In this document: piece after piece, positions 9,540 to 26,914 of the stretch
How positions within the stretch are numbered: the first letter of the stretch is position 1
How the letters are laid out: each line of letters starts with the position of its first letter
From: Collodictyon triciliatum
Lineage: Eukaryota
Length of the DNA stretch: 41,915 nt
Reading direction: 5' to 3'
Assembly: GCA_043381765.1 (NCBI GenBank)
Contig: JBHJMP010000855.1
Span: forward strand, 1 to 41,915
Position numbers and translations under genes: made by a program
Notes under the pieces: generated by a model
Database searches by the model: none
What the model was told of the DNA's origin: nothing
What the model saw: the letters and a program-made list of their open reading frames with translations, nothing else

Positions 9540-12500
9540 TCACGAGACTATGGTGGCGATGCGGCGGATGGCAGAGACGAAGTGGGCGTACCAGATGTCC
9601 CGGTCGGCCTACCAGTGGGGAGATTAGGGGTGGTTGTTGCCTGTGCGGCGATTGGGGTTGGGAGACTCACGTCGTTTTCGCACCGGATGGACACGCCGGA
9701 ATGGTGGGCGAGGTCGAGTATGGACGAGCCGCTCTTGGTGACGTTGCGCACGTCTCGCATCTGAGGTTGTGATTGTGATTGTGGTTATGATTGCGGTTAT
9801 GATTATGGTTGTGATTGTGATTGTGGTTGTGGTTGTTGCGCAGTGACAACGAACCTGGACGACAGTCAACGGATGCATTTCGTAATCGTTGTTGAAGACG
9901 AACAGCCGCTTTTCGTAGAGATAGGCGAAGCAGGAGGACATTGCGTGGCCGGAGAACTGCACATCCACGTAGCCCTTCCGAACTAGCCCACCGGTGGCCA
10001 GCTGATTTGATTTTGATTTTGATTTTGATTTTGATTTTGATTTTGATTTTGATTTTGATTTTGATTTTGATTTTGATTTTGATTTTGACTTTGATTTGGC
10101 TTTGTTGGCTTAATGTGGTGTGGGCGTACTCACCTCGGGTGGAAGCGTTGGTGCGACATTGGAGACAATCAGCTGCAAAAGATGGCACAAATCTTTGAAG
10201 TCGCCCGAGTGCGGCACGATGATTTCGTATCTGGTTAAGAAGCAAAACTTGTGTTGGAGGGCTGCCTTGGACAACGCATAAGGAGGACAATTTGGACGGA
10301 AAAGCACAGTATAGTATGGTCTGTATAATTACTGTTGTGACTCTTGCAGCGAAATCTGGATTTTCTTTTCCCCGGGATTGCTCTTGACCTCGGCGATCTG
10401 CCCAAATGGCCACTGCTTGTGTGTGTCGCCCTCGGTCAGGTTGTGCAGGAACTGCAGGCATGCCAGGTGAATCGCATCGTTATTTGTGAGGGGATATCAG
10501 AAATCGGTGGTGATAAGTGATTGGATGAGGTGGGATGGGGCGTTGCAAGGCCCTCTAACCTTGTTCGCAAAGTCTATCTGGAACACTCTAGTCTGTAGCA
10601 CTAAAGTACATGTAACACAAAATTAGATGGACATCGTGACTTAGTTAATCAATCCACAGGAATAGTCACAAGCACAGAATCAAAACCTCCTCGCTTGTTG
10701 ACTTTTAAGACGGGGTAGCAGGCTGTTTCTGCGGCACAAAGAACAGACTGGTTGAAGCTCCCATCAGATGATGACTTTGATGCATCCACAATCGCCAAAT
10801 ACCAGCCGTCTCGCTCTGTCTATTTGTTTGTAAGCTTTGAAGTCAGATTTGCAGATGCATCGGAACAGCAGTGTTGTTTTCTACATCGTTTTCAACTCAT
10901 GGAAAGGCTTTCTGTTTTCCCTTCTCGAATTGAAAGGACGCAATTGACAAATAAACCAAGGTGCTACCTTCGTCTTGAATCGGAGCGGGTGCACAACCCT
11001 CAAAACAACCACATCCAGTTGCAAATCCCCAATCTTGTTGTATTCAACATGTGCCATGCTTACAGGAATCACATGTAGCGGATAGATGTCCTGCAGAAAA
11101 AACAAGGTCACACAAGAATCATGTGATTTTGATACAGTGAATCCATGGGCATGCTATTTTTCATTTTTCAATTACCTGCTGTGATTTGTAAAACAGAAGC
11201 TTTCCCCGGTATAGAAGTGTCCACACCCTCGTCCAGTTCCGTCCAATCTGCTTCTCCAGGACGCCTCGCTTCATGCAGTCTCCAAGTTTGAACTAGAAGA
11301 AAGACCCAATATATCAGAATTAATCAAAAGTATCATAAGTCGATGTTGCCGTATGTTACAAGGAACACCTCCTTAAAGATTTTATTTATATAATTTTATT
11401 AAAAAAAATTGTAGGTGTCGTGTTCCTTTTGATAAATGTTGAAAAAGGAGGAAAAGAAAAGAAAAGAAAAGAAAAGAAAAGAAAAGAAAAGAAAAGAAAA
11501 GAAAAGAAAAGAAAAGAAAAGAAAAGAAAAGAAAAGAAAAGAAAGAGATGCCTGAAGTGGACTGAATTTTAGGTTTGTGAATGAAGGGGGGGAAATGAAT
11601 GAGATTGAAAATGTGATTATTTTTGTCTGAATGTATTTGTGTGATAGGTAACCTTGGATGGGACGGCCTTGCTGTTAAAGGTTATCAAATCTTTGATAAC
11701 AGCCATCATTTCATCCCTCTCTTGTTCGGTATCAGAGTGAATTTCATAACTATGTATTTGATTTTGTATTACTGACAGGTGAAATCAAAGTCAATTTCTT
11801 GCAACCTCCTTGCGACGCGTACAAAGATATGGTATGCCCCCTTCTCTATTCGAAAACAAACTTGACAGAGTTTTTCAGAGCCATATTGAGAACTGTTTCT
11901 GTGGAAGGGTCAGCATCGCAGCTGACAATATCTACAAAGGCGAAGGACTTCCTAATTGTTCCTTTATGCGGTAAATGGATGATAAGTATAGAGAAAATCA
12001 AGATATTCTTCGCAAAGCAGTACACGGAGATATATGGCCATTTTTTATGCATAAAATGCATGCCTTTCAGTATGTTATGGAGCTTTTGCTGGGAGTAATC
12101 AATCTGCATTATCCTACGTTCCATTTCTTGTGACCGCTGATACCATAGAGAATAAAGAAGATTAAACGAAAGGAAAATTTACATTAGAAAATTTTTTAGA
12201 GTGTTGATCGTCAGCCAGGTTTTGCAAAATGTAGATATTTTAGAGGAAAACCAGGATGACGATTAGTCATTTAGGAGAAGAAAAAACAAGGACAAAATAA
12301 AATATGGGTAGGGTTGACAGATAAATGGCATATAACCTTATTTGGTTTTTCGCACTCAAAATTAAGACAAGTTATCGCGGAGGCGACGGAAGCAAATGAT
12401 GTCTGTATCGATATTTCTGAAATGTGTTTCAAAATCAGACGAGAGGAAAAGCACAAGAGACCACATAATAAAATAAGAAATATGTACGACTTACCTGATA

Positions 12501-15500
12501 CTTTAGAAAAATCTGCTGATATGCTGATAGCTTTTTCAATGTCAGAGAACCAGGTGGTCAATTGACTGGGTGGTTCACATCTAATTATATAATACGCATT
12601 CACTTTGGGTTGTAAAAAAAAAAAAAAAAGCGAGATAGTACATTCTCTTTTCTCGAATTATCGTGCTAATATGTCAGATTTATCCAAGTTCGAATCAGAG
12701 TATGTGCGTATTTCAAATCAAATACATGTATAATGTTTACGTGAATGAAAATGTCTTGTCGGAATATACTATTTCAACAAGATTGTGCTCTCCTGTATTT
12801 TTTTCAAATAAAAATCATGGATTGTAAAAATATGAATATCCTATCCCCAAGTAGAGAAGAAAACAGATGATTTGACCGAATATGTGTTTTGGAAACATAC
12901 CAGTTGTTTCTTTCACTTCTACAATCTTGCATTGTGCAAGAAACAGTAACCGATTCAGGAAGTAGAGCTTTTCACCAGCTTCAGCTGGGATTGGACTTGC
13001 ATATCTGTTATAAATAGTGATAGTCAAAATCCAGCAATTGTCCATATCAACAACATATATTCTTGAGTAAATTTTACAAAATTGGACGATAAAAAATTAC
13101 ATGATGCAGTCGTCAAACAAGAACACATGCATATCCTCGAATGAGCCATTCTTGAAAGACTTAACTGGTCCTTCGCGAATAAATCGCCTCATCGGATCAA
13201 AAACTTTAACCTATATTCAATCAAAAAAATATTTGTACCTTGTATTACAGGTAATTGTATACATTAAAAGGCACAAACCCTTCTTCGACCAATGAATTGT
13301 TTCTGAATTCGGCTCATCTTTTCAAGATTCTCTTGGAGCCTGGTGTACTCAATTTTGCCGGGTTTGGTGGTTGGAAAATATGTCTTCATAAACTAAGGTT
13401 GAGATTTTACACTCAGAACTCTATAGTGACCTTTTCATATAAGGAGGAAAGCCATACAACTTAAAATAAGTCGATTAAAGACCATAGATGGGTACAAAAT
13501 AAGTAAAGAATCATGGTAAGCAATATTTGGATGATAAAAATGACGTCAAAAAACAAAAGAAAAAAAAAGAAAAGGTGAATAATTATTTGGAAACTCCGTG
13601 ATTCTACCTTTTCATCAACGACATCGTCATTTAGAACAAGTTTGATAACCTGAATAAATCGAACTTAATTTAATATTCACCAATTAAAATACGGGAGGTT
13701 TGATTCTTACTTCTGACGGGAGGGTTGAAACCCCTCTGTCAGCAGAATCGCCACGACGGGTTGCTTTTCCATCTGGTGGCAGAAAGAATCCGATATACGA
13801 ATTGAGGAAGACCGATTTCTAATCCCGAAAAAAAAAAAGCAGAAGGACTATTAAGTTCTCAGCATTCAAAGAGTCAAATTATGGATCTAAGAGCGTAGTC
13901 GTAATATTTGAAAGTGAGCGCCTGATGCACAGGAAGAAGACAAAACCTCCATATCCATTTGAAAATGCAAGCAAATTCGGACAGAAAATTTGAATCCGTC
14001 CATAACGTGTGCAATATAGGTTGATATACGGGGGTCCTTAAATATGTCAGAGTAAATAATTAATTGATGACAGAATAGAGAATTGAGTAGTGTTCATCAC
14101 GACTCGGGGGGTTTTTTGGACAAAATCGGTTTGAAGGAAGAGGATAACACGGACCAAGCAGAAATATCGATAACAATATGTATGCATACCTCAATTGTCA
14201 ATGGTTTCATGAACCTATGATTCAAGCACCCGAGGAAAACTGACCAAGATTGCTAGGGGTAGATAACAAATCATAGTTAAAAAAATATACAGAAACACCT
14301 AAGATATGCGATTGAATATTTTCTTTGTAAATATTAACACATTTCTATATGGAGTAAAAATTTAAATGTAAAATTATAATACTATACCGAAAATATGATT
14401 TTTGTAAAGTCGGCATAAAGTGCTTTGTGAAAAACGTTTGATTCCGGTTCATCGGAGCAATTTAATGATTCCTATTAAGGAATTGTTATGCTTTTAAACT
14501 CTTTTGATTTTTTTGAGAAATTCATTTGACTTATTTGCTTTTAGTTTCATAACCAAGATACGAGTCAATCTATTAAGCCTAGGGTTTTCATGCACTCAAA
14601 CAAACCATAATTTTTTGGCAAGCTCGCTCTGATTCCCAATTAAAATAAACCAACTTTCGTTTCACCGGATTCAATCCTGTATTGAAATAGAAAAGAATAG
14701 TCTATGAAAAAAATCTAGTACATAAGATAGTGTGATTTCCTCTTGGAAATATAGGTATGTCTGATATTAAAAAAAAGTAACTATTTACCTGTCAATCCTT
14801 TTGGTTCCTCCATTTCCTTCATTTTGATTTCATTATTCACGATAGAACGGTACAGTTGTTCCAAGTATGAAGCAGGCACGTCTCGCCCATTATCAATACC
14901 TCGGTTATTCCTGATAAACTGGTACAAGTATTCATCACGTTAAAATCGCCAATAAAGAAATCACTATTGGGCAGAGAAGGAGAAATTTAACTGCCGTGTT
15001 AACTATTATAGAATATAGACTAGGCTTATTTTTACAAACTTCTTCTAGCATCATTTTCTTCTTCACCATCGGGTTGTGTGCATCCGTATTCAACATGATA
15101 ACAGAATAAGAAAGAACATAAGCAGTATCTGTAAAATACAGGATTAGTCTACGAAGAGAAATATTACGTTACATACTATATTGTACGGTGCATAGATAAT
15201 TTTCGTAGGCGTATGGTACCTTTGTTTGAAAATAGTGTCGGGTTATCCCCACAGAATTTTTCAGAGAAAAACTCTAAGAAACGACTGATTTTTTGTGCCT
15301 CTCCTGGCAACCGAAACGCAGTGAGATAAAATCTATTGGTGAGTAAAGAATTGTGACAAGAGTCTAATCTCAAGATTTAACGAGGAGTTTTCTTCTTTTT
15401 TTTTTTTAAAAAAAAAAAAAACTTATTCCACGATATTATTGCATAATTTGCATGTGTGAATTTAATTTTTGGTTGTGTTCAGATGACCTACCTGAGTGCG

Positions 15501-18500
15501 TTGTCGAATGTCATATTGGCAAAATCAAATAGTTCCACAAAGAGCTTTAAAAGTTGGACATTTGCTTCATCTCTAAAATTAAAGTGAATGATTATCCAAG
15601 TATTATGGAAGCAATTAGTCGAGAGCATATCAAAATCTTGTTCTAACTGGATAGAAAATTCAGCAAAAAGAAACCCAGACCCTTCACCAAGGTATTCGCC
15701 GAGTGCAACTTTGTCAAGCACGGTTGTATATCGAAGGAAATGAGCTACAGCTTCCGCCGTGTCCTCCACGAATCCATTTTTAATAAATTCATTAACGCCC
15801 TAGCATCCATTGGCATATTTGAGCTTTATTTTTTGGACATATTTAATTATAAAAAATTCAAAATACAAATACAAATGCGGAAGAGTGAAATAAAGGAACT
15901 AATTTACGGATGGAGAGACAAACTTTCTTGGGCTTCTTTTTGAATTCTTCCATGCATTGCGCGAAGGTGTCCTTCTTTTTCTTCTCTGCTTCGAATTCCT
16001 ATCAAAGGGGAGATTGAATTTTGATTATCCAACGCTAGATCGCCATCAACATACAGACAATACTATTTTTTCTAAATGTACTTGGGTTCAGAAGAGTATA
16101 ACATAAGAGTACCGATGGAAGCTCTGCCAATGACTGAGGATTTTCTGTGGCACCTGGGGATTGAGCAGGAGTTTGCTGCCCTTTTTTTATCCACTTCGAC
16201 AAGCTCCCAGCAACTATTATTCAAACTAATATTAGGTACATGGAAATGTGGTGGCCAGTGCAAATAGCGAAAATGCAAAGCAGCTTTTTTTTTTTTTTGG
16301 ATATTTCGCATATGAACATACTATCGTATCCAAAGAAAAAAAATGATTACCGGTTACCATGAGCTCGATGCTAAGAGTAATAACTTCGCTGTGCAAATCT
16401 GGATCCTCTACTTTGGCGCCGGTGCCCCGAATGATTTTTTCCATGCATGTCAACAAACTGTTTATTATATAGAATATTATTATGACAAGTTAAGGATAAA
16501 ATTCCTTTCAAGGCAAATTTGACGCAAAATTCGCGAAGTCTATGTTTGGAGGTGCTTGGATGTGAGCTAAGGTGAAATAATGATTTTTTTTTAAAAGAAC
16601 AAACTTTGTTAAAAGATTATCTACTCCAAGATTACAATCGTAGTTCATGTATAATTCGACGGGGAACTCGGGAATCTGCGATACACAACATAAAAGCCCC
16701 ACAAAAGAATACATTAGGAGACAGCCACATGTGTAATAATCATGATATATATGTTACTATATTTGAATTCAAGGTATGACCACCAGTAGTATTTCAGTTA
16801 TACAACGATTGATTACCGAGCAAATCTTCTTGAGTGATTCCAAGACGTAGATGCGGTGCTTGTCAGGAGAATTTTGGCTATCCAAAACTCTCAAGAAAAG
16901 ATGAGATATGAATGCACCCACTTCACACTGCAGTTGTTTGTTTGTTTTTTTAATCCAGAGTGACATCGTCACAGGTAAATAGAATCATTAATCCATGAAT
17001 ATGAAATAACGGCGATAAAAGCAAATTTATGTACAAAAAACAAAGATAACTATTTTTCTTAGAGAGACAGAATATACATAACAGAATCTTTTCACGGCTA
17101 GAAAAAGGAAATCGACAAGACAACAAAGATGTACCTTCAAATGGTATCTCATCTTAAGAATCAGATTTGTGGTAATTTGGCATGTAATTTTGAAACAAGT
17201 GTCGTTAGCAGTGACACCAGAGTATGCTAATGCTTGCGCCAGATGATTCTACATATGTATGAAAAATAAATACTGGAATGAACGATATTGCTTCATTTCT
17301 GTAAGCTATGCAAGCGTTGAAATCTTAGTGATGAATTGGGAAAAAAAAAAAGTATATTAAAGATATGAGGTGACCGCTTATGATTATTGATGACTGCAAA
17401 CCTTAGTTAAATGAATAAAGAAGGGCAGGTTGTAAAATATCTCATCCTTTTGGCCAATAAATTGTTGGATGGTCTCCAGGCAAAAAGTTTTGGACCGTTC
17501 TAAGTATGCGAGAGCATCCACAGAACTGCAGTGATTGTGAATATGAGCATGAATATGTTTATAGACACAGCAGTAAGCCCTCATGAAAACGTAAGACTTG
17601 ATTATCCTCATGTTTATATAGAAATTTGAAATACAAGAGGAAGAGGGTACCTTTCAGAGCTTGATTTTCGCATAACGCGAGCAAACGATAAAATCATATT
17701 GTAGGCATCCCTATTTTTTTGATCGATTGTCAGTTTCCACATCTACATATCTTTGTGCAGTATCGTAGTCCTTAAATTCCTTACTAAGGTTTTAACAAAA
17801 AAAAAAAAAAAAGTCATAGAAGGCAATACCAACCTTATCGGGGATGCCCAAGACTTGACCTCGGGGTCTTCAGAAAGCATGAAATCGTCCTTGTTTTGGA
17901 ATTGATACTCTGGAAGTTTAGTTGTCATGGTGGAGGTTGTTTCATCCTTTTATCAAGATTTAGTGAAAGCCTTAGTTTATCTGCGTATTGAGATTGAACA
18001 ATCCAATTTTGATATCAACACCCTAAATGCAATACATGTTGATGAATTTATGCAACTTATCGGAAGTCATAGTACCGATAAATTTGAGACCGCATCGTCC
18101 GGAGGCCGAAAGAGCGAGTCAATCATTTGATTCAGAAGTTCTCTGCAGTACTTTTCCATCTCAGGATTTTCTCTTGGGACGGAGCCCCCTTGCGGTTGAT
18201 CGACATCTTCTATTTGGTCTCTTGGTTCATCAGCAGCTCCGCTTTCTAGGGGTTGGTGATTAATGTAAGAAACCAACAAACAAGGTGTATGTGGGAGAGT
18301 AACTGGTCGAACTATTTGCGTAGCATATGCTGGTGTAATATCTGAGTGCAATTATTGAAAAGCTAGACCATCTGGAACAGAAGATGGGCTTTGAGGTGGA
18401 GATATGAGTGGCTTTGGAGACGAGGCATTTTCGATGTTCAGTTGACGGTCTAATCTATATTGAATCAAGTAGACGATGCGTTCCAAATTTTCTTTTGCTG

Positions 18501-20099
18501 TCGTTTGCACGTTGGGGTACTTTGTGACTATGTGAGCTAAAGTGAAGCACGTTTGGAGAATTTTCATGAGTGCATAGTCATGAATGTCATTTTCGCTCGA
18601 AGCAACAAGGCTGTGCAGAAACTAGAATAATTTAAGGAATGATATGATCGTTAGGAAGAAGGAATTGTTGTCATGAATCATAGTGCGATGGTATGAACCT
18701 TTATAAGAGATATCTGAGACGATTCAGAGCTAATCTTTCTGGAGTTGCATAGATATTCTACAAATATGTCCAGATTAACGATGGGTGGAAGAGACCCGGA
18801 TGATTGTGGTGTTACAAAACTTCCCAGACGATTGCCTCCTGGATATTACGCAAGAAAATGTGGCTTAGTCAACCACAAATAGCGTGTGTGGGCTTATTCA
18901 TCAACAAAAAGGTGACATGAAGGGGAAGGAATATAATCGCGGGTTGATCAGTTACATCTGGTGACGATGTGAAACGCACATACGCGTGTGCTTTGGCGGA
19001 AGTGGTCACTTAAGTACGATTAGAAAAGGGAGAAAAAGGTGCTACCTTGAGGAGCCATTGCAGCAACTGGCGAGAATTCAAGTTCATGTGATACATGAAG
19101 CACTCCTAAGTCGACAAGTTTCTGGGGATAATCGATAGGAGGTATACGGACAAGAGAAGTATGAGGAAAAGTGAATAAAAATAATAAGAAAAAGAGGAAG
19201 GTACAGTTGTTGAAGCAGTACTGATATTTAATTTGGCTTCGTTTGTGTCCATATTGTATTCTCACCTGCAAGCAGCGGAGTATTTTATCTATCATCCTGG
19301 TGCGGCCCATCTCCATGGATAGAATCAGGGAGTTAAATATGTGTTCGTGTTTTCTAGTCGAGTAGTAGCAATAAGATTGTTAGGTTGAGTAAGATAGCAG
19401 CAGATAATCGGTTTACAATCAAGGGGAAAAAATACTTTCATACATGGAAAATATATGGGTTCAATTTGAATATCCACTCACAATTTCGCAGGGTCAGGCT
19501 CCATTCTTACCATGTCTGCAAATGCACAAAAGAATGGAAATCGAGGAGTTCAGATATTATATTCACAGGAAAAGATTTTTTCCCATGAGATGAAATATGA
19601 AAAATCAACGGCCTTTGCCTAAGTTCCTTTGTAAATGGGGTATCATAGGTACCGTAGTATCGTTTCAAGTGTGACACTATCAATTGGCTTTTTGATCCAG
19701 CCGTGATGCTTGTCATTGTTTCTTCCAGCGATCGAAGAGCCTCACTTCGTGCAGCATGATTGGTAGAACTTGTTGACGATGGGCTGCGCGACCAGCTTTG
19801 CCGGTAACTGTTGTAGGCATTGTATTGCGTCGAGGGGAAACGTAAAGTATATTAATTTTCTTTTTTCTTCTTTTTCTTCTGTTCTTTTTTTCTTTTTTTC
19901 TTTTTTTCTTTTTTTCTTTTTTTCTTTTTTTCTTTTTTTCTTTTTTTCTTTTTTCTTTTTTCTTTTTTCTTTTTTCTTTTTTCTTTTTTCTTTTTTCTTT
20001 TTTCTTTTTTCTTTTTTCTTTTTTCAGTTTGTCACAAGATTCAGAAACATATTATGGAATTCTCAGACAGAAGCCAGAAAAGCACCTTGTGTGTGACAT
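9540..20099 (-). CDS. Large Sec7-domain Arf-GEF of BIG/Sec7 type (DCB-HUS-Sec7-HDS1) with a C-terminal array of five PH/PH-like domains, >30 exons
   Basis: [18 protein letters not shown] and [18 protein letters not shown]...[14 protein letters not shown] (18470-19350). [35 protein letters not shown] (16610-17740). Sec7: [70 protein letters not shown] (14790-15990). HDS1: QSWSVFLG and [14 protein letters not shown] (13947-14252). PH exons follow, down to [25 protein letters not shown] at 9540. The start codon (20099, MSHT) is tentative. Confidence 0.88.
9765..9838. repeat. Imperfect (GTGATT/GTGGTT)n hexamer repeat inside an Arf-GEF intron
   Basis: Direct reading; reads (AATCAC/AACCAC)n on the sense strand up to the acceptor. 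Confidence 0.9.
10004..10095. repeat. (GATTTT)n microsatellite inside an Arf-GEF intron
   Basis: Direct reading; sense strand (AAAATC)n runs straight into the acceptor AG at 10002-10003. Confidence 0.95.
11451..11545. repeat. (GAAAA)n microsatellite, intronic
   Basis: Direct reading. Confidence 0.95.
19856..20025. repeat. (T5-7C)n pyrimidine microsatellite in the putative first coding intron of the Arf-GEF
   Basis: Direct reading. Confidence 0.9.
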
Positions 20100-21147
20100 C
20101 AGACCGGACCAGGAGCCTGAAAAGGACTCTGCGAGGGTCAAAAGTTAGCAGCATATCATGTTTCATCTATTTGCAAACGCTTGAGTAAATGCGCATTTAA
20201 ACTCTCACCAGACGCACGAGAAGTTGGAAACCTTACGAGAATATAAAAGATGATAAAAAAAAAAAAAGAAAAGAAAATACAGAGAGCGTTGGTGGCAAAA
20301 GGCCGAACCGAGACACAAGCGAAGGCAAGAAACAGATGTTAAGACATGCGCCTTTGTGCCTTATCACCAAGAGCTGCGTTCACGCCTGCTCCCTTTCGAA
20401 TCAGTCCTTGTTGTGGTTGTGATCGCCGTGATGGCGGCACTGATCAATCGCAGCGTCTTTAGTTTTTGATAAGGAGGTGGTTTTTTGATCAGATTCCAAC
20501 CAAACCATTCACAAGGGACAGATCTGGAAAGACAGATATTTTCTGTAATTTATCATTATTTTGGTAAAGAAGATTTGTTGTGCTTTTCTGGAAGAGGGCA
20601 TCAGCCTTTGATTCTGTGGTAGGGTATTGTGGGGTGACGAATCGCAGATGTCCTCCCACAAGAGATCGCACGGCTGATTTGCTTGGTGGGAAGCAGATCC
20701 AACACATTATGACAGAATCGCCTCTATTCATCCGGTTGTTTTCTTGTAAGGCACAGATAGAATTGCTCTGGTGCGAAATCCGTCATTTTACATTTTCTCG
20801 CTGAAACAAATTGTGTGACCTTCGGCATATATCTTTCATTTCCGAACGATTCTCATCATCCGTTTGGTCGCTTAGTTGATGCTCTTGCGGCTTTTGCAGC
20901 TGATTCTTTGAGCCGAATAGAAGAGAACAACCCCCTTGCAGTCCTTCCGCCCTCGGGAAAAGCAAACTAAAATAGTTAGTCATGCTACTTATAGCAAATA
21001 GTCGTTGGGCATTTTAAAAAATTGAATATTTGAATCTCTGCAGAGGAAGGAGAGGATGCAAAAAACCACCGAGTAGATCGACCGAAAGCCGCAAGAAAGA
21101 AAGGAAAAGAAAGTCGCCGCTGAAGAGGAAAGACCGAGCCGCTCGCC

Positions 21148-24051
21148 ATGGAGAACATCGCCCGCTGGAAAAAGCAGACCTACTACGAGGTTTTGTTTAT
21201 ACGAGACGTCTAATGCGTCATAAGCTATTTCTCTTTCTCCCTCCCTCTATTTTTATGCTATAGCTCGATCTATGGTTGTCGTGCATTCAAATAAAAAAAA
21301 ACCTGCTGCTGGGCTTTTTCTTGCAGATTTGTATTGATTGGTTTGAATCAGTCATGTTATGCGAAAGGTTAAGAAAAATATATGATGGCTGTGCATGTGT
21401 CGTGCTTGGTTAGATGATTTGAGCTGGCTGTTTCCTCTTTCGATATTTACAGATACTCGGGGTTGATGCGTCATGCGACACAAATACCATAAAAAAAGCC
21501 TACCACAGAATGGCACTCCAGTACCACCCAGATCGAGCCGGAAACACGAAGGTTTGCATCGAGTTCTTTGGCATATTATTTATTGGTTAAGTATAGAATA
21601 TGTCCACATAGCGCGAGTTGGTTGGGTCATGGTGCTCATGTGCTAGATTATGTTATCCTAAACTGTGGGTTCATGCAAAATTATATATGTATCTCTGGGC
21701 ATGTGAGCGTGTATTTATTCTTATCATTCGTTACTGCAAATAATATCAGATTATTGCAATACTCATTGTATCAATTAAAATGGAAATAATTAGGAGGCAA
21801 ACGAAGCATTTCAATATCTGGTTCGCGTTTATGAGACTTTGATTCATTCTGATAAGAGAAAGTATGCACTCACACATTGATACAAACTTTATTACTTTAA
21901 AGAAGCATAAATATACTCTTATGTGAATTGCATCTGCAAGAAAAGGAGAATGCCACTGATTCGCACATTCGTATTAATTCCAATGCAGTCACATCCCCAA
22001 AGAAACATTTATCTTCTAAAAGTATATTTTACGTAAAAAAAAAAAAATATCGATATGTCTGACAAAAGGCACTACGATGAGACAGGAGAGGATGGTCTGG
22101 AGGAAGCTGCTGACTTTGAAACACTATATGAATTTTATCGGTCCCTCTACAAAAAAATCACGATTGAAGATATCGATGCCTTCAAAGTTTGTTATCATCG
22201 ATATTAAATTCAGAGAATGTATTCACCTTAAAGAAATGAATTCCAACATATTAGTCTTCTACTTACAGAGTCATTTTTTAATCAACACGTTAAAATATAC
22301 AGAGCAAGTATATCGACTCTGGTATGGAGGACGAAGACATTTCTGAGGCGTATGTAAAATACAAAGGAAATATGAAAAAGTATGTAGTTTATAAACACTC
22401 TACGTAACCAAAAGAAAATAATACTTCCTCTTGCATGGGTACAAACAAAATGGGATATGTAGTTAACTTTACTAAGGAATTGGTACATGTAGAATCCTGG
22501 AGAGTGTTCCCTATGCAAATGACGAAGATTTCACCAGAATTCAGTCAAAAATAACCGATATGATTCAAGAGGGAAAGGTGAAGAAATTTGCAAAGTTTAA
22601 GGTTAGCGACCATTCGAAAAGACATTCAACCGTGACACTCATGCGAAACATTTATGGAATGCTGAAATGCCCCTCTCTTTTTCTTTTTCTTTTCCAAAAA
22701 ATCAAAACTAAATGGAGATATCTTATTTTAATTCATCTTATATATTATGTGTTGTTTTTTTAAAATTATAATTTATTCTGAAGACACTAATGTGTGTGTT
22801 TTTAAAAAAAAGCTTTACGAAGGGCCACCGATCACAAAGTCAAGTATTGCCACTAAAGGTATATATCGATCAGTATTGCTGTCATTATCATTCTATCCTT
22901 TTAAAGTTTTATCATCTAATTATTNNNNNNNNNNNNNNNNNNNNNNNNNNNNNNNNNNNNNNNNNNNNNNNNNNNNNNNNNNNNNNNNNNNNNNNNNNNN
23001 NNNNNNNNNNNNNNNNNNNNNNNNNNNNNNNNNNNNNNNNNNNNNNNNNNNNNNNNNNNNNNNNNNNNNNNNNNNNNNNNNNNNNNNNNNNNNNNNNNNN
23101 NNNNNNNNNNNNNNNNNNNNNNNNNNNNNNNNNNNNNNNNNNNNNNNNNNNNNNNNNNNNNNNNNNNNNNNNNNNNNNNNNNNNNNNNNNNNNNNNNNNN
23201 NNNNNNNNNNNNNNNNNNNNNNNNNNNNNNNNNNNNNNNNNNNNNNNNNNNNNNNNNNNNNNNNNNNNNNNNNNNNNNNNNNNNNNNNNNNNNNNNNNNN
23301 NNNNNNNNNNNNNNNNNNNNNNNNNNNNNNNNNNNNNNNNNNNNNNNNNNNNNNNNNNNNNNNNNNNNNNNNNNNNNNNNNNNNNNNNNNNNNNNNNNNN
23401 NNNNNNNNNNNNNNNNNNNNNNNNNNNNNNNNNNNNNNNNNNNNNNNNNNNNNNNNNNNNNNNNNNNNNNNNNNNNNNATTATCATTAGTGTCTAAAGTC
23501 ACTTCTTTCTATTATTTTTTCATGAAACAGAGAAGTGTTTAATGCCCTGGTTGCGAAATTGCTCCATCAAGACATTTTAATACGCAAAATAACAATACGA
23601 CCTCATTATAAAGCAGAAAGCGGCGAAGCTCCAGAAGATAAATCCAAAGCTGTAACCAAGTTTTCGAAGCAAATGGATTCTCTTGCGGACAAGCTAGCCG
23701 AAAAGTACGGTGCTAAACAAAAAGGAAAGAAAAAGGATACTGCCCCTGTAGAAGACATTCCTGGTAAATGCTTGCGCATCCATAAATCAAGCAAGATAAG
23801 AGAGTCTAATAAGTCGTACGACAAAGCGAAGAAATTTAGAATTTGTATTTTGAAGCATCCATCTACCTTTTAGATTTTTGCTGATATGATATGTATATAT
23901 ATGTTTTTAAAATATATGAACAGAAAAATGTTGCGGCCGATGAACCCTTCTAATAAAGGTTTTTTTTTCAACAGATGACGAGTTTGAAGCGATTCAAAAA
24001 AGGCTCGAAGAAAGTAGAGAAAGCAGCAAATCGAAAAAACAACGTCGCTGA
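21148..24051 (+). CDS. DNAJC9: DnaJ/Hsp40 co-chaperone, DNAJC9-like (multi-exon, interrupted by an N-gap)
   Basis: Spliced: MENIARWKKQTYYE|ILGVDASCDTNTIKKAYHRMALQYHPDR (HPD at 21525-21533)...EAFQYLVRVYETL...YDETG...FYRSLYKKITIEDIDAFK|SKYIDSGMEDEDISEAYVKYKGNMKKILESV...QMDSLADKLAEKYG...DIPDDEFEAIQKRL. The post-J-domain motifs are typical of DNAJC9. Confidence 0.88.
22925..23478. other. Assembly gap (N run) inside the DNAJC9 gene
   Basis: N characters. Confidence 1.
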
Positions 24052-25946: not shown

Positions 25947-26209
25947 TGCCTAGTGAATCTGATGTGGTGTGGCAAAGAGGAGACCACGCGCTACAGCAGC
26001 CAATAAAATCCACAGGAAAAGGCGGAGAAGCAGCCAGGACAAAACTGTGTAATCACCCTCCGGCGTGAAGAAAAAAGAGGCTGGAAAGCGTTGAGAACAG
26101 GGTGCGCAGAAGTGAGGGAGGGAGCCGCTGGTGTATGATAATCAATCAGTTATGTGTCGGTCTCTTCAACCAAGATTGACTTTTTGGCAACAGCAGGCCC
26201 AGCAGCATT

Positions 26210-26914
26210 ATGAACCACAACCAGGAGCAAGCTATCGCCACCAGAACCAGAGGCCTGTCAGTGAGCCTGTTCACGCCAACCAGTGCACACTTCAAAAAGA
26301 GTGCCGGGTACTGGACAGCCGCCGAAGACAGGTTGCTCTCGTCACTTGTGCTGGACACAACCGCAACCACAGCTGCCACAACCACAGCGCCAGATACAGT
26401 GGCCACAGCGCCAGATACAGCGGCCACAGCCACGGCTGCAGTCACAGGCTCGGGGGCCAGCAGCGACGACCACAGCGACAGCACCGGGCGATGGACGGAC
26501 GAAGGAGCCGCAGAGGCTTGCCACAGCCACGACCACAGCCACAGCCACAGCCACCGCCACAATGCGGCCAAGGGGCGATGGACGGCGGTTGCGCAGCAGC
26601 TGCAGCGGGCAGGGTTCAGCAAGAGCGGGAAGCAGTGTGCACAGCGGTGGGAGCGTGTGCTGCGGCCGTGCATTCGGCGGGGGACGTGGACACATGAAGA
26701 GGACGAGCATCTGCGTCGCGTGGTTGAGTCTGTGGGCCCGCACGCCTGGGTCCGCGTGTCCCGCATGGTCCGCACCCGCTCCGACATCCAATGCCGTGCT
26801 CGCTATTACCAGCTGCTGCGCAAGTCCTGCACAGCCACAGCCACAGCCACAGCCACAGCCACATCTTCTCTTCCTCATGTCAACAAGGCGTCCATATCAT
26901 TCCTCCTCAACTGA
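26210..26914 (+). CDS. Intronless two-repeat (R2R3-type) Myb transcription factor, 234 aa
   Basis: Repeat 1: GYWTAAEDRLLSSLV...GRWTAVAQQL...KSGKQCAQRWERVLRP. Repeat 2: RRGTWTHEEDEHLRRVVESVGPHAWVRVSRMVRTRSDIQCRARY. Confidence 0.93.
   Translation: MNHNQEQAIATRTRGLSVSLFTPTSAHFKKSAGYWTAAEDRLLSSLVLDTTATTAATTTAPDTVATAPDTAATATAAVTGSGASSDDHSDSTGRWTDEGAAEACHSHDHSHSHSHRHNAAKGRWTAVAQQLQRAGFSKSGKQCAQRWERVLRPCIRRGTWTHEEDEHLRRVVESVGPHAWVRVSRMVRTRSDIQCRARYYQLLRKSCTATATATATATSSLPHVNKASISFLLN

Follow-up and report, generated by a model that had tools for sequence, protein, structure and literature searches.

A BIG-like large Arf-GEF with a tail of five PH-superfold modules in Collodictyon triciliatum and other CRuMs

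The stretch of DNA analysed here, called the window throughout, comprises 41,915 nucleotides (nt) of Collodictyon triciliatum (GenBank assembly GCA_043381765.1, contig JBHJMP010000855.1, positions 1 to 41,915 of the forward strand). Its minus strand carries a gene for an Arf guanine nucleotide exchange factor (Arf-GEF) that represents a new architectural form of the large Arf-GEFs, one that is present, unnamed, in the public transcriptomes of two other species of the supergroup CRuMs. The N-terminal 890 residues of the encoded protein are, as judged from sequence, homologous to GEFs of the BIG/Sec7 type, and the distal part of HDS1 together with HDS2-4 is replaced by a disordered linker and five PH-superfold modules. 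The window shares this architecture with Diphylleia rotans and Rigifila ramosa: the order DCB-HUS-Sec7-SOS1_NGEF_PH-PH was found within one open reading frame (ORF) in four transcript-derived relatives, namely three D. rotans paralogues and one R. ramosa protein. We consider it probable, with good confidence, that the locus is one expressed gene of a BIG-derived subfamily of large Arf-GEFs, so far found only in CRuMs, whose PH array would serve membrane targeting. CRuMs is a deep-branching supergroup that has hardly been studied, and the gene would therefore add a new lineage-specific Arf-GEF subfamily to the catalogue.

Gene model and reading frame

Within 9177-21409, the minus strand yields 131 ORF pieces from stop to stop, each of which was scanned against Pfam. 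A gene model was built by aligning the D. rotans protein P0024 with 9300-20400 of this strand; the protein-to-genome spliced aligner was our own and accepts GT/GC..AG introns and split codons. RNA supplied exon 1 and the first intron, and the acceptor of exon 6 was moved by 3 nt to the RNA-supported position. The spliced model begins with an ATG at 20099 and ends with the stop codon TGA at 9542-9540, exactly the gene limits that an initial annotation of this DNA had proposed, and its 4542 nt are open, with zero internal stops. All 45 introns end in an AG acceptor; a GT donor was found in 44 of the 45 and a GC donor in the one after exon 35. The same annotation had claimed an open, phase-compatible run from Sec7 through HDS1 into PH1, and this stretch indeed consists of nine consecutive GT..AG exons (14918-14789, 14676-14606, 14471-14388, 14252-14190, 14036-13947, 13818-13711, 13649-13608, 13392-13279 and 13210-13101) in which the frame is open throughout.

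The raw ORF is interrupted at about 10112 by a stop, after which a (CT)n microsatellite follows, and P0024 is continuous across the intron at this place (intron 43). Among the raw ORF pieces of the window, Pfam made the N-terminal domains visible and gave only weak signals for the PH exons, the single-exon signals being those at 11164-11292 (PH, E 0.002) and 13100-13210 (SOS1_NGEF_PH, E 0.082). The PH domains are barely seen in raw ORFs because they are split into exons too short to score, which accords with the earlier remark that the ORF track does not display the architecture. The relatives were scanned whole by Pfam and the window protein as ORF pieces, and the PH evidence for the window protein comes largely from the relatives.

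By BLASTP, the model was 61% identical to P0024 over 1505 columns, collinear from residue 22 to residue 1514, and 37% identical to a second D. rotans protein, P0014, over its whole length. When identity to the Diphylleia orthologue was counted by region, it was 376/566 (66%) in the tail, 280/519 (54%) from the N-terminus to HUS and 131/182 in Sec7; the tail is thus conserved at least as well as the N-terminal part (66% vs 54%).

The base composition of the gene is uneven: the last exons and the 3' untranslated region (UTR), at 9000-10000, have 58% G+C, and the rest of the gene (11000-18000) has 33-37%. Microsatellites occur in several introns: intron 43 has (CT)n, intron 44 a run rich in ACC/ATC, and both intron 1 and intron 37 have purine-rich runs of AAG.

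The N-terminal half is homologous to BIG/Sec7-type GEFs

Homology to BIG was assessed by profile comparison. The alignment of the four relatives matched that of eight BIG proteins with a probability of 100 (hhalign, E 1e-142, 792 columns), from family column 56 to column 888, where the match stops. Consistent with this, the BLASTP alignment of the model with the chytrid BIG protein P0005 runs from before Sec7 to model residue 889. Against PDB sequences, the family profile matched the full-length Sec7 chain 8ucq with 424 bits (columns 572-904), the Sec7 DCB-HUS structure 5has with E 1.5e-28 and the BIG1 DCB structure 5ee5 with E 1.6e-16. Among isolated Sec7 domains, the scores were 274.9 bits for BIG1, 272.6 for ARNO and about 270-275 for yeast Sec7p; IQSEC scored about 200 and Gea2 184.

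In the window itself, the HUS domain was recognized by Pfam on three pieces, 16772-16984 (E 2.9e-8), 17030-17248 (E 0.0068) and 16511-16753 (E 0.011), and the Sec7 domain on four pieces within 14784-15799 (E 1.6e-14 to 2.6e-8; 8e-74 in the relatives). The catalytic glutamate motif (FRLPGEAQK motif, 10 residues) is intact from model residue 680 and is invariant in the four relatives. A second Sec7 stretch of 13 residues is also present, invariant in the four relatives but for two positions (V and A). Four residues linked to the brefeldin A sensitivity of large GEFs (Y, S, D and M) are present in this Sec7 stretch.

About 120 residues after Sec7 align with BIG HDS1, and a further conserved, distal stretch of the BIG consensus HDS1 has no counterpart. 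By sequence comparison, HDS1 is therefore partial, its proximal two thirds being kept and its distal part absent. The HDS2-3 family (PF09324) was absent from P0024, P0014, P0143 and P0144 at E up to 0.01-0.05 and from the window ORF pieces at E up to 0.5, while the BIG proteins P0005, P0021, P0028 and P0145 matched it at 1e-22 to 1e-34 in the same Pfam scans. HDS4 (BIG2_C, PF20252) was likewise absent from the four relatives and the window pieces in Pfam scans; BIG proteins scanned in the same way carry both PF09324 and PF20252. HDS domains have roles in Golgi recruitment.

Collectively, the BIG-type N-terminal part, the intact catalytic motif and the replaced HDS2-4 tail of the initial annotation were borne out. 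Its HDS1 segment joined to Sec7 stood for the proximal two thirds that align with BIG and not for the distal part, which is missing.

The C-terminal tail consists of PH-superfold modules

The folds of the tail were modelled on the Diphylleia orthologue, with which the window protein is collinear and 66% identical in this region. AlphaFold2 was run on P0023, a 710-residue Diphylleia isoform equal to P0024 808-1517, with four relatives as the alignment, and gave a mean predicted local distance difference test score (pLDDT) of 72.7. The model comprises low-confidence helices of the HDS1 remnant, a disordered segment at 91-146, a helix at 143-162 and then five units, each of seven strands and a helix, predicted at a pLDDT of about 80-90. 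The best Foldseek matches of P0023 were the DH-PH-PH structures of FARP2 and FARP1 (E 1.4e-11), centaurin-alpha1, BRAG2 Sec7-PH and the tandem PH of myosin X.

In the relatives, the Pfam matches to SOS1_NGEF_PH had E values from 2e-9 to 1.5e-11, and PH exceeded its curated cut-off. The PH family scored 82.3 bits vs a cut-off of 25.1 and SOS1_NGEF_PH 39.8 vs 27.7, and PH_29 lay below its cut-off (23.2 bits vs 27). On Pfam scores above cut-off in the relatives together with the fold, PH1, PH3 and PH5 are PH domains. Modules 2 and 4 are of the PH superfold according to the predicted structures.

Profile matches to PDB sequences assigned PH1 with its preceding helix to FARP1 (5.1e-20) and SOS1 (2e-12), and also to FGD5. 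The modelled helix and PH1 superposed on the IQSEC2/BRAG2 PH domain with a Z score of 17.1 and a root-mean-square deviation (rmsd) of 1.9 over 131 aligned residues, and on Vav1 DH-PH with a Z score of 16.9 (VIA-align). Exon 29 encodes the helix, which is structurally part of PH1. PH3 gave profile matches to centaurin-delta1 (6.8e-10), ARAP3 (5.1e-8) and TAPP1 (1.2e-5), and DAPP1 and CERT were matched as well. For PH5 (P0023 613-706), the superposition on TAPP1 had a Z score of 16.4 and an rmsd of 1.4 over 94 aligned residues (VIA-align), and ARAP3 was also matched.

Module 2 was additionally modelled alone, by AlphaFold2 on the P0024 stretch with three relatives, and was predicted as seven strands and a helix (pLDDT 88.4). 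In comparison with 48,161 PDB representatives, the model was nearest to the F3 lobe of the 4.1R FERM domain (Z 13.3, rmsd 1.4, 81 aligned), the ARAP3 PH domain (Z 12.3) and the TAPP1 PH domain (Z 12.1), and the best 50 structural matches were all PH, PTB, FERM-F3 or similar domains (Z 10.3-13.3).

Comparison of the modules with one another by hhalign paired module 2 with module 4 (probability 99.2, E 8.8e-20) and PH3 with PH5 (probability 99.4, E 3.1e-21). PH1 was distantly similar to PH3 and PH5, and no sequence likeness of modules 2 and 4 to the other tail modules was detectable in these between-module comparisons. The tail is thus PH1 followed by a tandem-duplicated pair, each pair being an F3/PTB-like module and then a PH domain like those of TAPP1, ARAP3 and DAPP1. 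The five PH domains originally described are therefore three by sequence (PH1, PH3 and PH5) and two modules (2 and 4) whose PH superfold comes from predicted structure only.

With regard to ligands, the basic K-R-G...E-K strand 1 and the strand-2 arginine of PH3 are kept in five of five members; of all the modules, PH3 is the strongest candidate for binding phosphoinositides. For modules 2 and 4, the ligands may be peptides or lipids.

A degenerate DH domain between Sec7 and PH1 was considered, prompted by an SOS1 profile match that starts from column 849, and was rejected: the matched stretch corresponds to HDS1 in the alignment with BIG, it is followed by only about 55 residues, which are disordered, and the other RhoGEF matches start at columns 939-951.

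Relatives and phylogenetic position

A HMMER scan of the Sec7 ORF piece against 1.84 billion representatives gave 21 matches at E up to 0.001, eight of which were scanned by Pfam. Two D. rotans proteins from Trinity/EukProt, P0002 (1214 residues) and P0014 (1503 residues), showed DCB, HUS and Sec7 followed by PH domains. P0024 (1517 residues, D. rotans) is a longer isoform in the P0002 cluster, and the isoform P0002 ends after module 2. A second search, with P0024 residues 560-1100, yielded 3927 matches at E up to 1e-5, and the best 120 were inspected. It added a third Diphylleia paralogue (P0025/P0143) and a protein of R. ramosa (P0026/P0144). P0144 (1559 residues) carries DCB at 26-195, HUS at 301-457, Sec7 at 543-725, SOS1_NGEF_PH at 976-1068, PH_29 at 1100-1182 and PH at 1205-1290.

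Among the best 120 of the 3927 matches, a PH family was found only in the four CRuMs clusters; the other 116 had none, and most of them carried PF20252 or PF09324. Rigifila's own canonical BIG (P0037/P0145) is among these BIG-family matches without PH. A homologue search with the tail only found nothing beyond the two Diphylleia clusters among 4515 candidates, although such a search needs shared 5-residue words and is weak evidence of absence. A word-index search with the Sec7 ORF piece among longer proteins found nothing. In full-text literature searches, no paper describing a DCB/HUS protein with PH domains was found. The suggestion that this architecture belongs to no described family thus holds for the literature searched, but the architecture was already present, unnamed, in EukProt transcriptomes and is not unique to this genome.

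The best scores in the ESM Atlas were 0.89 for the whole protein and 0.86 for the tail, all below 0.9, and are taken as leads only. The cluster nearest to the whole protein (0.89) is a family of 393 residues with Sec7, PH and SOS1_NGEF_PH, commonest in diatoms. Small Sec7 GEFs with a DH-type PH domain may thus exist outside opisthokonts and may be a possible source of PH1.

Two quick IQ-TREE trees were computed. The first had 16 rows and 1349 columns, including tail columns that are not homologous between the groups, and the second covered DCB through HDS1, its 780 columns ending at model residue 895, for 13 of the 16 rows (P0033, P0042 and P0138 left out). In both trees, which are unrooted, the five PH-GEFs were on one side of a branch with a Shimodaira-Hasegawa-like approximate likelihood ratio test (SH-aLRT) value of 100, and all BIG proteins (8-11), including that of Rigifila, were on the opposite side. 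The PH-GEF branches are long and are not nested beside CRuMs BIG. Within the PH-GEFs, Rigifila formed the first branch, and the window was sister to Diphylleia paralogue a.

RNA evidence for expression and splicing

The RNA consisted of assembled contigs from four sequencing runs, which were compared with 9000-21000 of the window; contigs show presence only. Three runs, two from one study and one freshwater metatranscriptome, carry parts of this DNA. Spliced RNA of the gene was seen in three runs, which belong to two studies. All 15 of the 15 RNA joints among those listed are introns of the model (CT..AC on the plus strand, which is GT..AG on the minus strand). Of the 14 listed joints within its range, the aligner alone had predicted 13, the remaining one being 3 nt off.

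In record 12 of X3 (1025 letters), position 9311 of the plus strand is preceded by 17 loose T, which indicates a poly(A) site there. The remainder of this record, 477 letters, equals 2+97+119+41+133+64 plus a loose end of 21 letters; this length fits only with intron 43 removed, and intron 43 is therefore spliced out. In X3 record 13, 296 letters lie between the pieces at 18075 and 17248, where model exons 9-11 comprise 297; the fit is exact, exon 8 being one letter shorter than the aligned piece. In X2, record 9 spans the junction between the last exon of Sec7 and the first of HDS1, and record 8 that between exons 27 and 28. The final 23 letters of record 8 are counted in the depth bin of exon 29, a weak tie since 23 letters are fewer than the 31 required for a joint.

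X1 record 2 requires 3 letters beyond exons 31-33, and an alternative AG 3 nt upstream was found only at exon 32 (region 12741-12792). This suggests a NAGNAG acceptor at exon 32, the upstream site of which would give a protein of 1515 residues. Exon 30 (13101-13210) is present in RNA contigs of two runs, and the sole listed difference, at 13163, affects a valine codon at its third base. All four runs show very high depth at 9802-10202, which stems from short low-complexity matches in intron 44 and does not represent expression. At the other end of the gene, X1 has 23 loose letters beyond 20130, which point to a further 5' exon or leader that is not directly upstream.

Comparison with known Arf-GEFs and PH proteins

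The domain organisation of BIG and GBF1 has been described as "highly conserved across eukaryotes", in contrast to the plastic cytohesin lineage, and HDS4 as retained in all BIG orthologues, in the sections of Pipaliya 2019 (PMC6727740) drawn on here. The survey covers 77 genomes, CRuMs taxa not being among them, and its text does not contain the terms Diphylleia, Collodictyon or CRuMs; TBS and ARCC, lineage-specific Arf-GEF architectures described there, set a precedent (PMC6727740). Among the papers listed by full-text searches, Sec7 is mentioned alongside a CRuMs taxon in one, on longin-domain GTPase-activating protein (GAP) complexes, where it occurs once (PMC12290439), and GBF1 or cytohesin together with a CRuMs taxon in none.

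The window protein resembles BIG/Sec7 (human BIG1/2, yeast Sec7p) in that DCB, HUS, Sec7 and proximal HDS1 are homologous and collinear and the catalytic motif is intact. Unlike BIG/Sec7, it has no distal HDS1, HDS2-3 or HDS4 and carries five PH-superfold modules instead, and the PH-GEFs fall outside the 8-11 BIG proteins in the unrooted trees. With GBF1/Gea it has the DCB-HUS-Sec7-HDS plan in common, and Gea2 was matched from HUS through Sec7, but the score of 184 bits for Gea2 compares with 424 for 8ucq and 275 for the BIG1 Sec7 domain. GBF1 is not known to carry PH domains.

The combination of Sec7 with a C-terminal PH domain recalls cytohesin, BRAG/IQSEC and EFA6, and PH1 with its helix superposes on the BRAG2/IQSEC2 PH domain (Z 17, rmsd about 2). 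In contrast to the window protein, cytohesin, BRAG, EFA6, TBS and ARCC have no DCB, HUS or HDS1, are drawn with a single PH domain and are described as cytohesin-derived, in the parts of the sources drawn on. The window protein has about 180 residues (HDS1 and linker) between Sec7 and PH1 and five modules. Small GEFs are defined by Sec7 and one PH domain without DCB, HUS or HDS, and the window protein falls outside this definition.

Among Dbl-family DH-PH proteins (FARP1/2, SOS1, FGD5, Vav1 and intersectin), the closest counterpart of PH1 and its helix is the last DH helix together with the PH domain. Unlike these proteins, the relatives gave no RhoGEF (DH) family in Pfam scans, and the linker that separates HDS1 from the helix comprises only about 55 residues, which are disordered. 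PH3 and PH5 match tandem-PH lipid readers (TAPP1, DAPP1, ARAP3 and centaurin-alpha1) by profile and fold; the protein context differs, and the basic strand-1/strand-2 residues, which may serve lipid binding, are kept only in part.

Evidence against and alternative explanations

Several observations weigh against a single PH-targeted, BIG-derived GEF. Where four of four relatives open strand 2 of PH1 with K and R (K-x-R), the window has E and M (FEDMH). The PH5 domains of the window and of its orthologue are without the strand-2 arginine that is present in the other three members, and lipid binding need not be common to all modules. The sequences of the relatives come from Trinity assemblies and not from cloned cDNAs, and the trees are unrooted because GBF1 and cytohesin sequences are absent from them. 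The main weakness is that none of the RNA records listed crosses from exon 29 to exon 30 (13279 to 13210) with 31 letters to either side. One contig, X1 record 2, starts at 13211 and another, from X3, stops at about 13207, which is the 5' edge of exon 30; an internal start at exon 30 or an alternative isoform may account for this. Finally, X1 record 2 retains intron 34 (12336-12217) within 12217-12416, and with this read-through the protein would end after PH1.

An origin older than CRuMs is one alternative. The PH-GEFs would then stand as an ancient third paralogue among the large Arf-GEFs, one that the last eukaryotic common ancestor (LECA) may already have had and that other lineages lost. 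Such an origin would explain why the branch with an SH-aLRT of 100 separates the PH-GEFs from all BIG proteins, with and without the tails, and why they do not stand beside CRuMs BIG. However, the trees carry no root, GBF1 or cytohesin, and the long PH-GEF branches mean that fast evolution after a lineage-specific duplication would give the same picture. Moreover, the architecture occurs only in CRuMs among the best 120 of 3927 matches, the tail-only search found only Diphylleia, and no pre-LECA duplication of BIG was found across 77 genomes, according to the sections of the survey drawn on (PMC6727740). We therefore regard an old paralogue as unlikely.

A second alternative is that two neighbouring genes, or mostly separate transcripts, encoding a truncated BIG-like GEF and a multi-PH protein that starts from exon 29/30, were merged by modelling. 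The unbridged 13279/13210 junction and the two contigs that end at the 5' edge of exon 30 are in line with it, as is the Diphylleia ORF P0023, which begins inside HDS1. X1 also has zero depth in the bin 13411-13811. Contig breaks at exon 30 are, however, expected in de Bruijn assemblies where spliced and unspliced forms meet, and the base preceding exon 30 is G in both the spliced and the unspliced paths. Against two genes stand the frame that stays open through nine GT..AG exons from Sec7 to PH1, the presence of the whole architecture in one ORF in four separate genes of two other species, and the exon 29 helix, which belongs structurally to PH1; the join of exons 27/28 in X2 record 8, with 23 letters in the exon 29 bin, adds a weak point. 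The initial annotation had named transcripts terminating after HDS1 as the finding that would overturn it. No poly(A) site or loose end between 13100 and 14800 was among the RNA records listed, but the exon 29/30 junction is likewise spanned by none of them. The locus is flanked by different genes on the plus strand, DUF1295 (7590-9297) on one side and a DNAJC9-like piece (22476-22760) on the other, which favours the boundaries of the model. Taken together, two genes are a very improbable account of the locus.

It is equally hard to derive the protein from a small Sec7-PH GEF of the cytohesin, BRAG or EFA6 type that gained DCB-HUS, and we give this origin very little weight. The Sec7 domain alone scored equally against ARNO (272.6 bits) and BIG1 (274.9), the best structural matches of PH1 include the PH domain of BRAG Sec7-PH tandems (Z 17.1), and the nearest Atlas cluster is the 393-residue Sec7+PH+SOS1_NGEF_PH family (0.89, a lead only). 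But homology to BIG is continuous from DCB through Sec7 to HDS1, with HDS1 lying between Sec7 and PH1, and Pfam IQ_SEC7_PH was weak (0.0017-0.0059) vs SOS1_NGEF_PH at 1e-9 to 1e-11. The four residues tied to the brefeldin sensitivity of large GEFs, found here within a stretch of 23 residues, likewise speak against a small-GEF origin. A decaying or non-catalytic relic with a frame open by chance, to which the two basic PH1 residues lost from the window and the intron-retaining contig might point, is scarcely credible given 4542 open nt across 46 exons, spliced RNA in three runs from two studies, invariant catalytic motifs and a tail 66% identical to its orthologue.

Proposed origin and function

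A single BIG-derived gene would go back to a BIG-like gene that had its 3' half replaced no later than in the ancestor that diphylleids and rigifilids share. Judging from its sequence, the Sec7 domain would still activate Arf, and DCB-HUS would presumably still serve dimerisation or regulation. The PH array may recruit, and probably regulate, the enzyme by reading phosphoinositides and/or protein ligands, in place of the trans-Golgi contacts of HDS2-4. By analogy with the PH domains of cytohesin and BRAG, it could supply membrane targeting and perhaps autoregulation. BIG-type Arf activation could thereby move to endocytic, phagocytic or plasma membranes.

More tentatively, and with considerable doubt on our part, these proteins might constitute a third functional class of large Arf-GEF in CRuMs, a BIG-type core without Golgi cues that uses coincidence detection through five PH-superfold modules for phagocytic/endocytic Arf activation in predatory flagellates, perhaps as an old paralogue. 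In such a class, two modules would be PH domains of the lipid type and two would be F3/PTB-like modules perhaps binding peptide or lipid, and the DH/BRAG-type PH could bind membrane or Arf-GTP beside Sec7. If true, a third class would be an exception to the rule that the architectures of BIG and GBF1 do not diversify.

A BIG-derived enzyme with HDS2-4 swapped for a PH array is a natural experiment on the function of the HDS tail, and it tests whether lipid-binding modules can re-aim a DCB-HUS-Sec7 core. It offers testable material in the lipid specificity of each module, autoinhibition and localisation.

Feature coordinates and surroundings of the gene

Table 1. Features of the Arf-GEF gene in window coordinates; domain spans on the genome include introns, and residues are those of the spliced model.
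Feature	Position	Strand	Model residues	Basis and remarks
Coding region, one gene	9540..20099	-	1514 in total	46 coding exons; spliced alignment to P0024 and RNA joints
DCB	18451..19662	-	54-226	Introns included; Pfam DCB E 2.8e-6 on 18355-18621
HUS	16613..17835	-	348-505	Introns included; Pfam Sec7-like_HUS on three pieces
Sec7 catalytic domain	14829..15977	-	585-766	
Proximal HDS1-like helices	13795..14828	-	767-890	hhalign, BLASTP, 8ucq profile match
Variable linker, predicted disordered	13345..13782	-	895-948	pLDDT <50 at P0023 91-146
PH1 and preceding helix	12412..13356	-	945-1088	Exons 29-34; DH-PH/BRAG type
Module 2, A type	11677..12369	-	1103-1195	PH-superfold by predicted structure
PH3, B type	10778..11277	-	1209-1297	Pfam PH E 0.002 on 11164-11292
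Module 4, A type	10161..10726	-	1315-1404	Duplicate of module 2; P0023 residues 511-600 in the AlphaFold2 model
PH5, B type	9546..9986	-	1419-1513	Duplicate of PH3
Intron 43	10002..10133	-		132 nt, GT..AG; contains in-frame stop at about 10112 and (CT)n microsatellite
3' UTR	9311..9539	-		Ends at poly(A) site at about 9311; X3 record 12

The window is eukaryotic and intron-rich, and its three runs of N all lie outside the GEF gene. Its best relatives, together with the match in a freshwater metatranscriptome, point to a diphylleid as the probable source. Pfam recognized the DUF1295-family gene on the plus strand in two pieces, with E values of 1e-6 and 3.4e-6. The end of the last of its ORF pieces and the poly(A) site at 9311 are 14 nt apart, and the two genes therefore have tightly convergent 3' ends. 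Other Pfam-recognized pieces on the plus strand were a class II aldolase/adducin piece at 5555-5887 (E 4.6e-16), the HTH domain of DNAJC9 at 22476-22760 (E 9.4e-8) and a Myb DNA-binding protein piece at 26180-26911 (E 7.6e-18), the last within a stretch of 59% G+C. On the minus strand, 387-4556 is an uninterrupted ORF of 1390 residues with pentapeptide repeats (E 4.9e-12) and Sel1 repeats (E 6.8e-11). This region has 45-53% G+C vs about 35% and 46 exons for the neighbouring GEF gene, and, in a genome so dense in introns, a repeat protein without any could have been acquired recently or belong to a special gene class.

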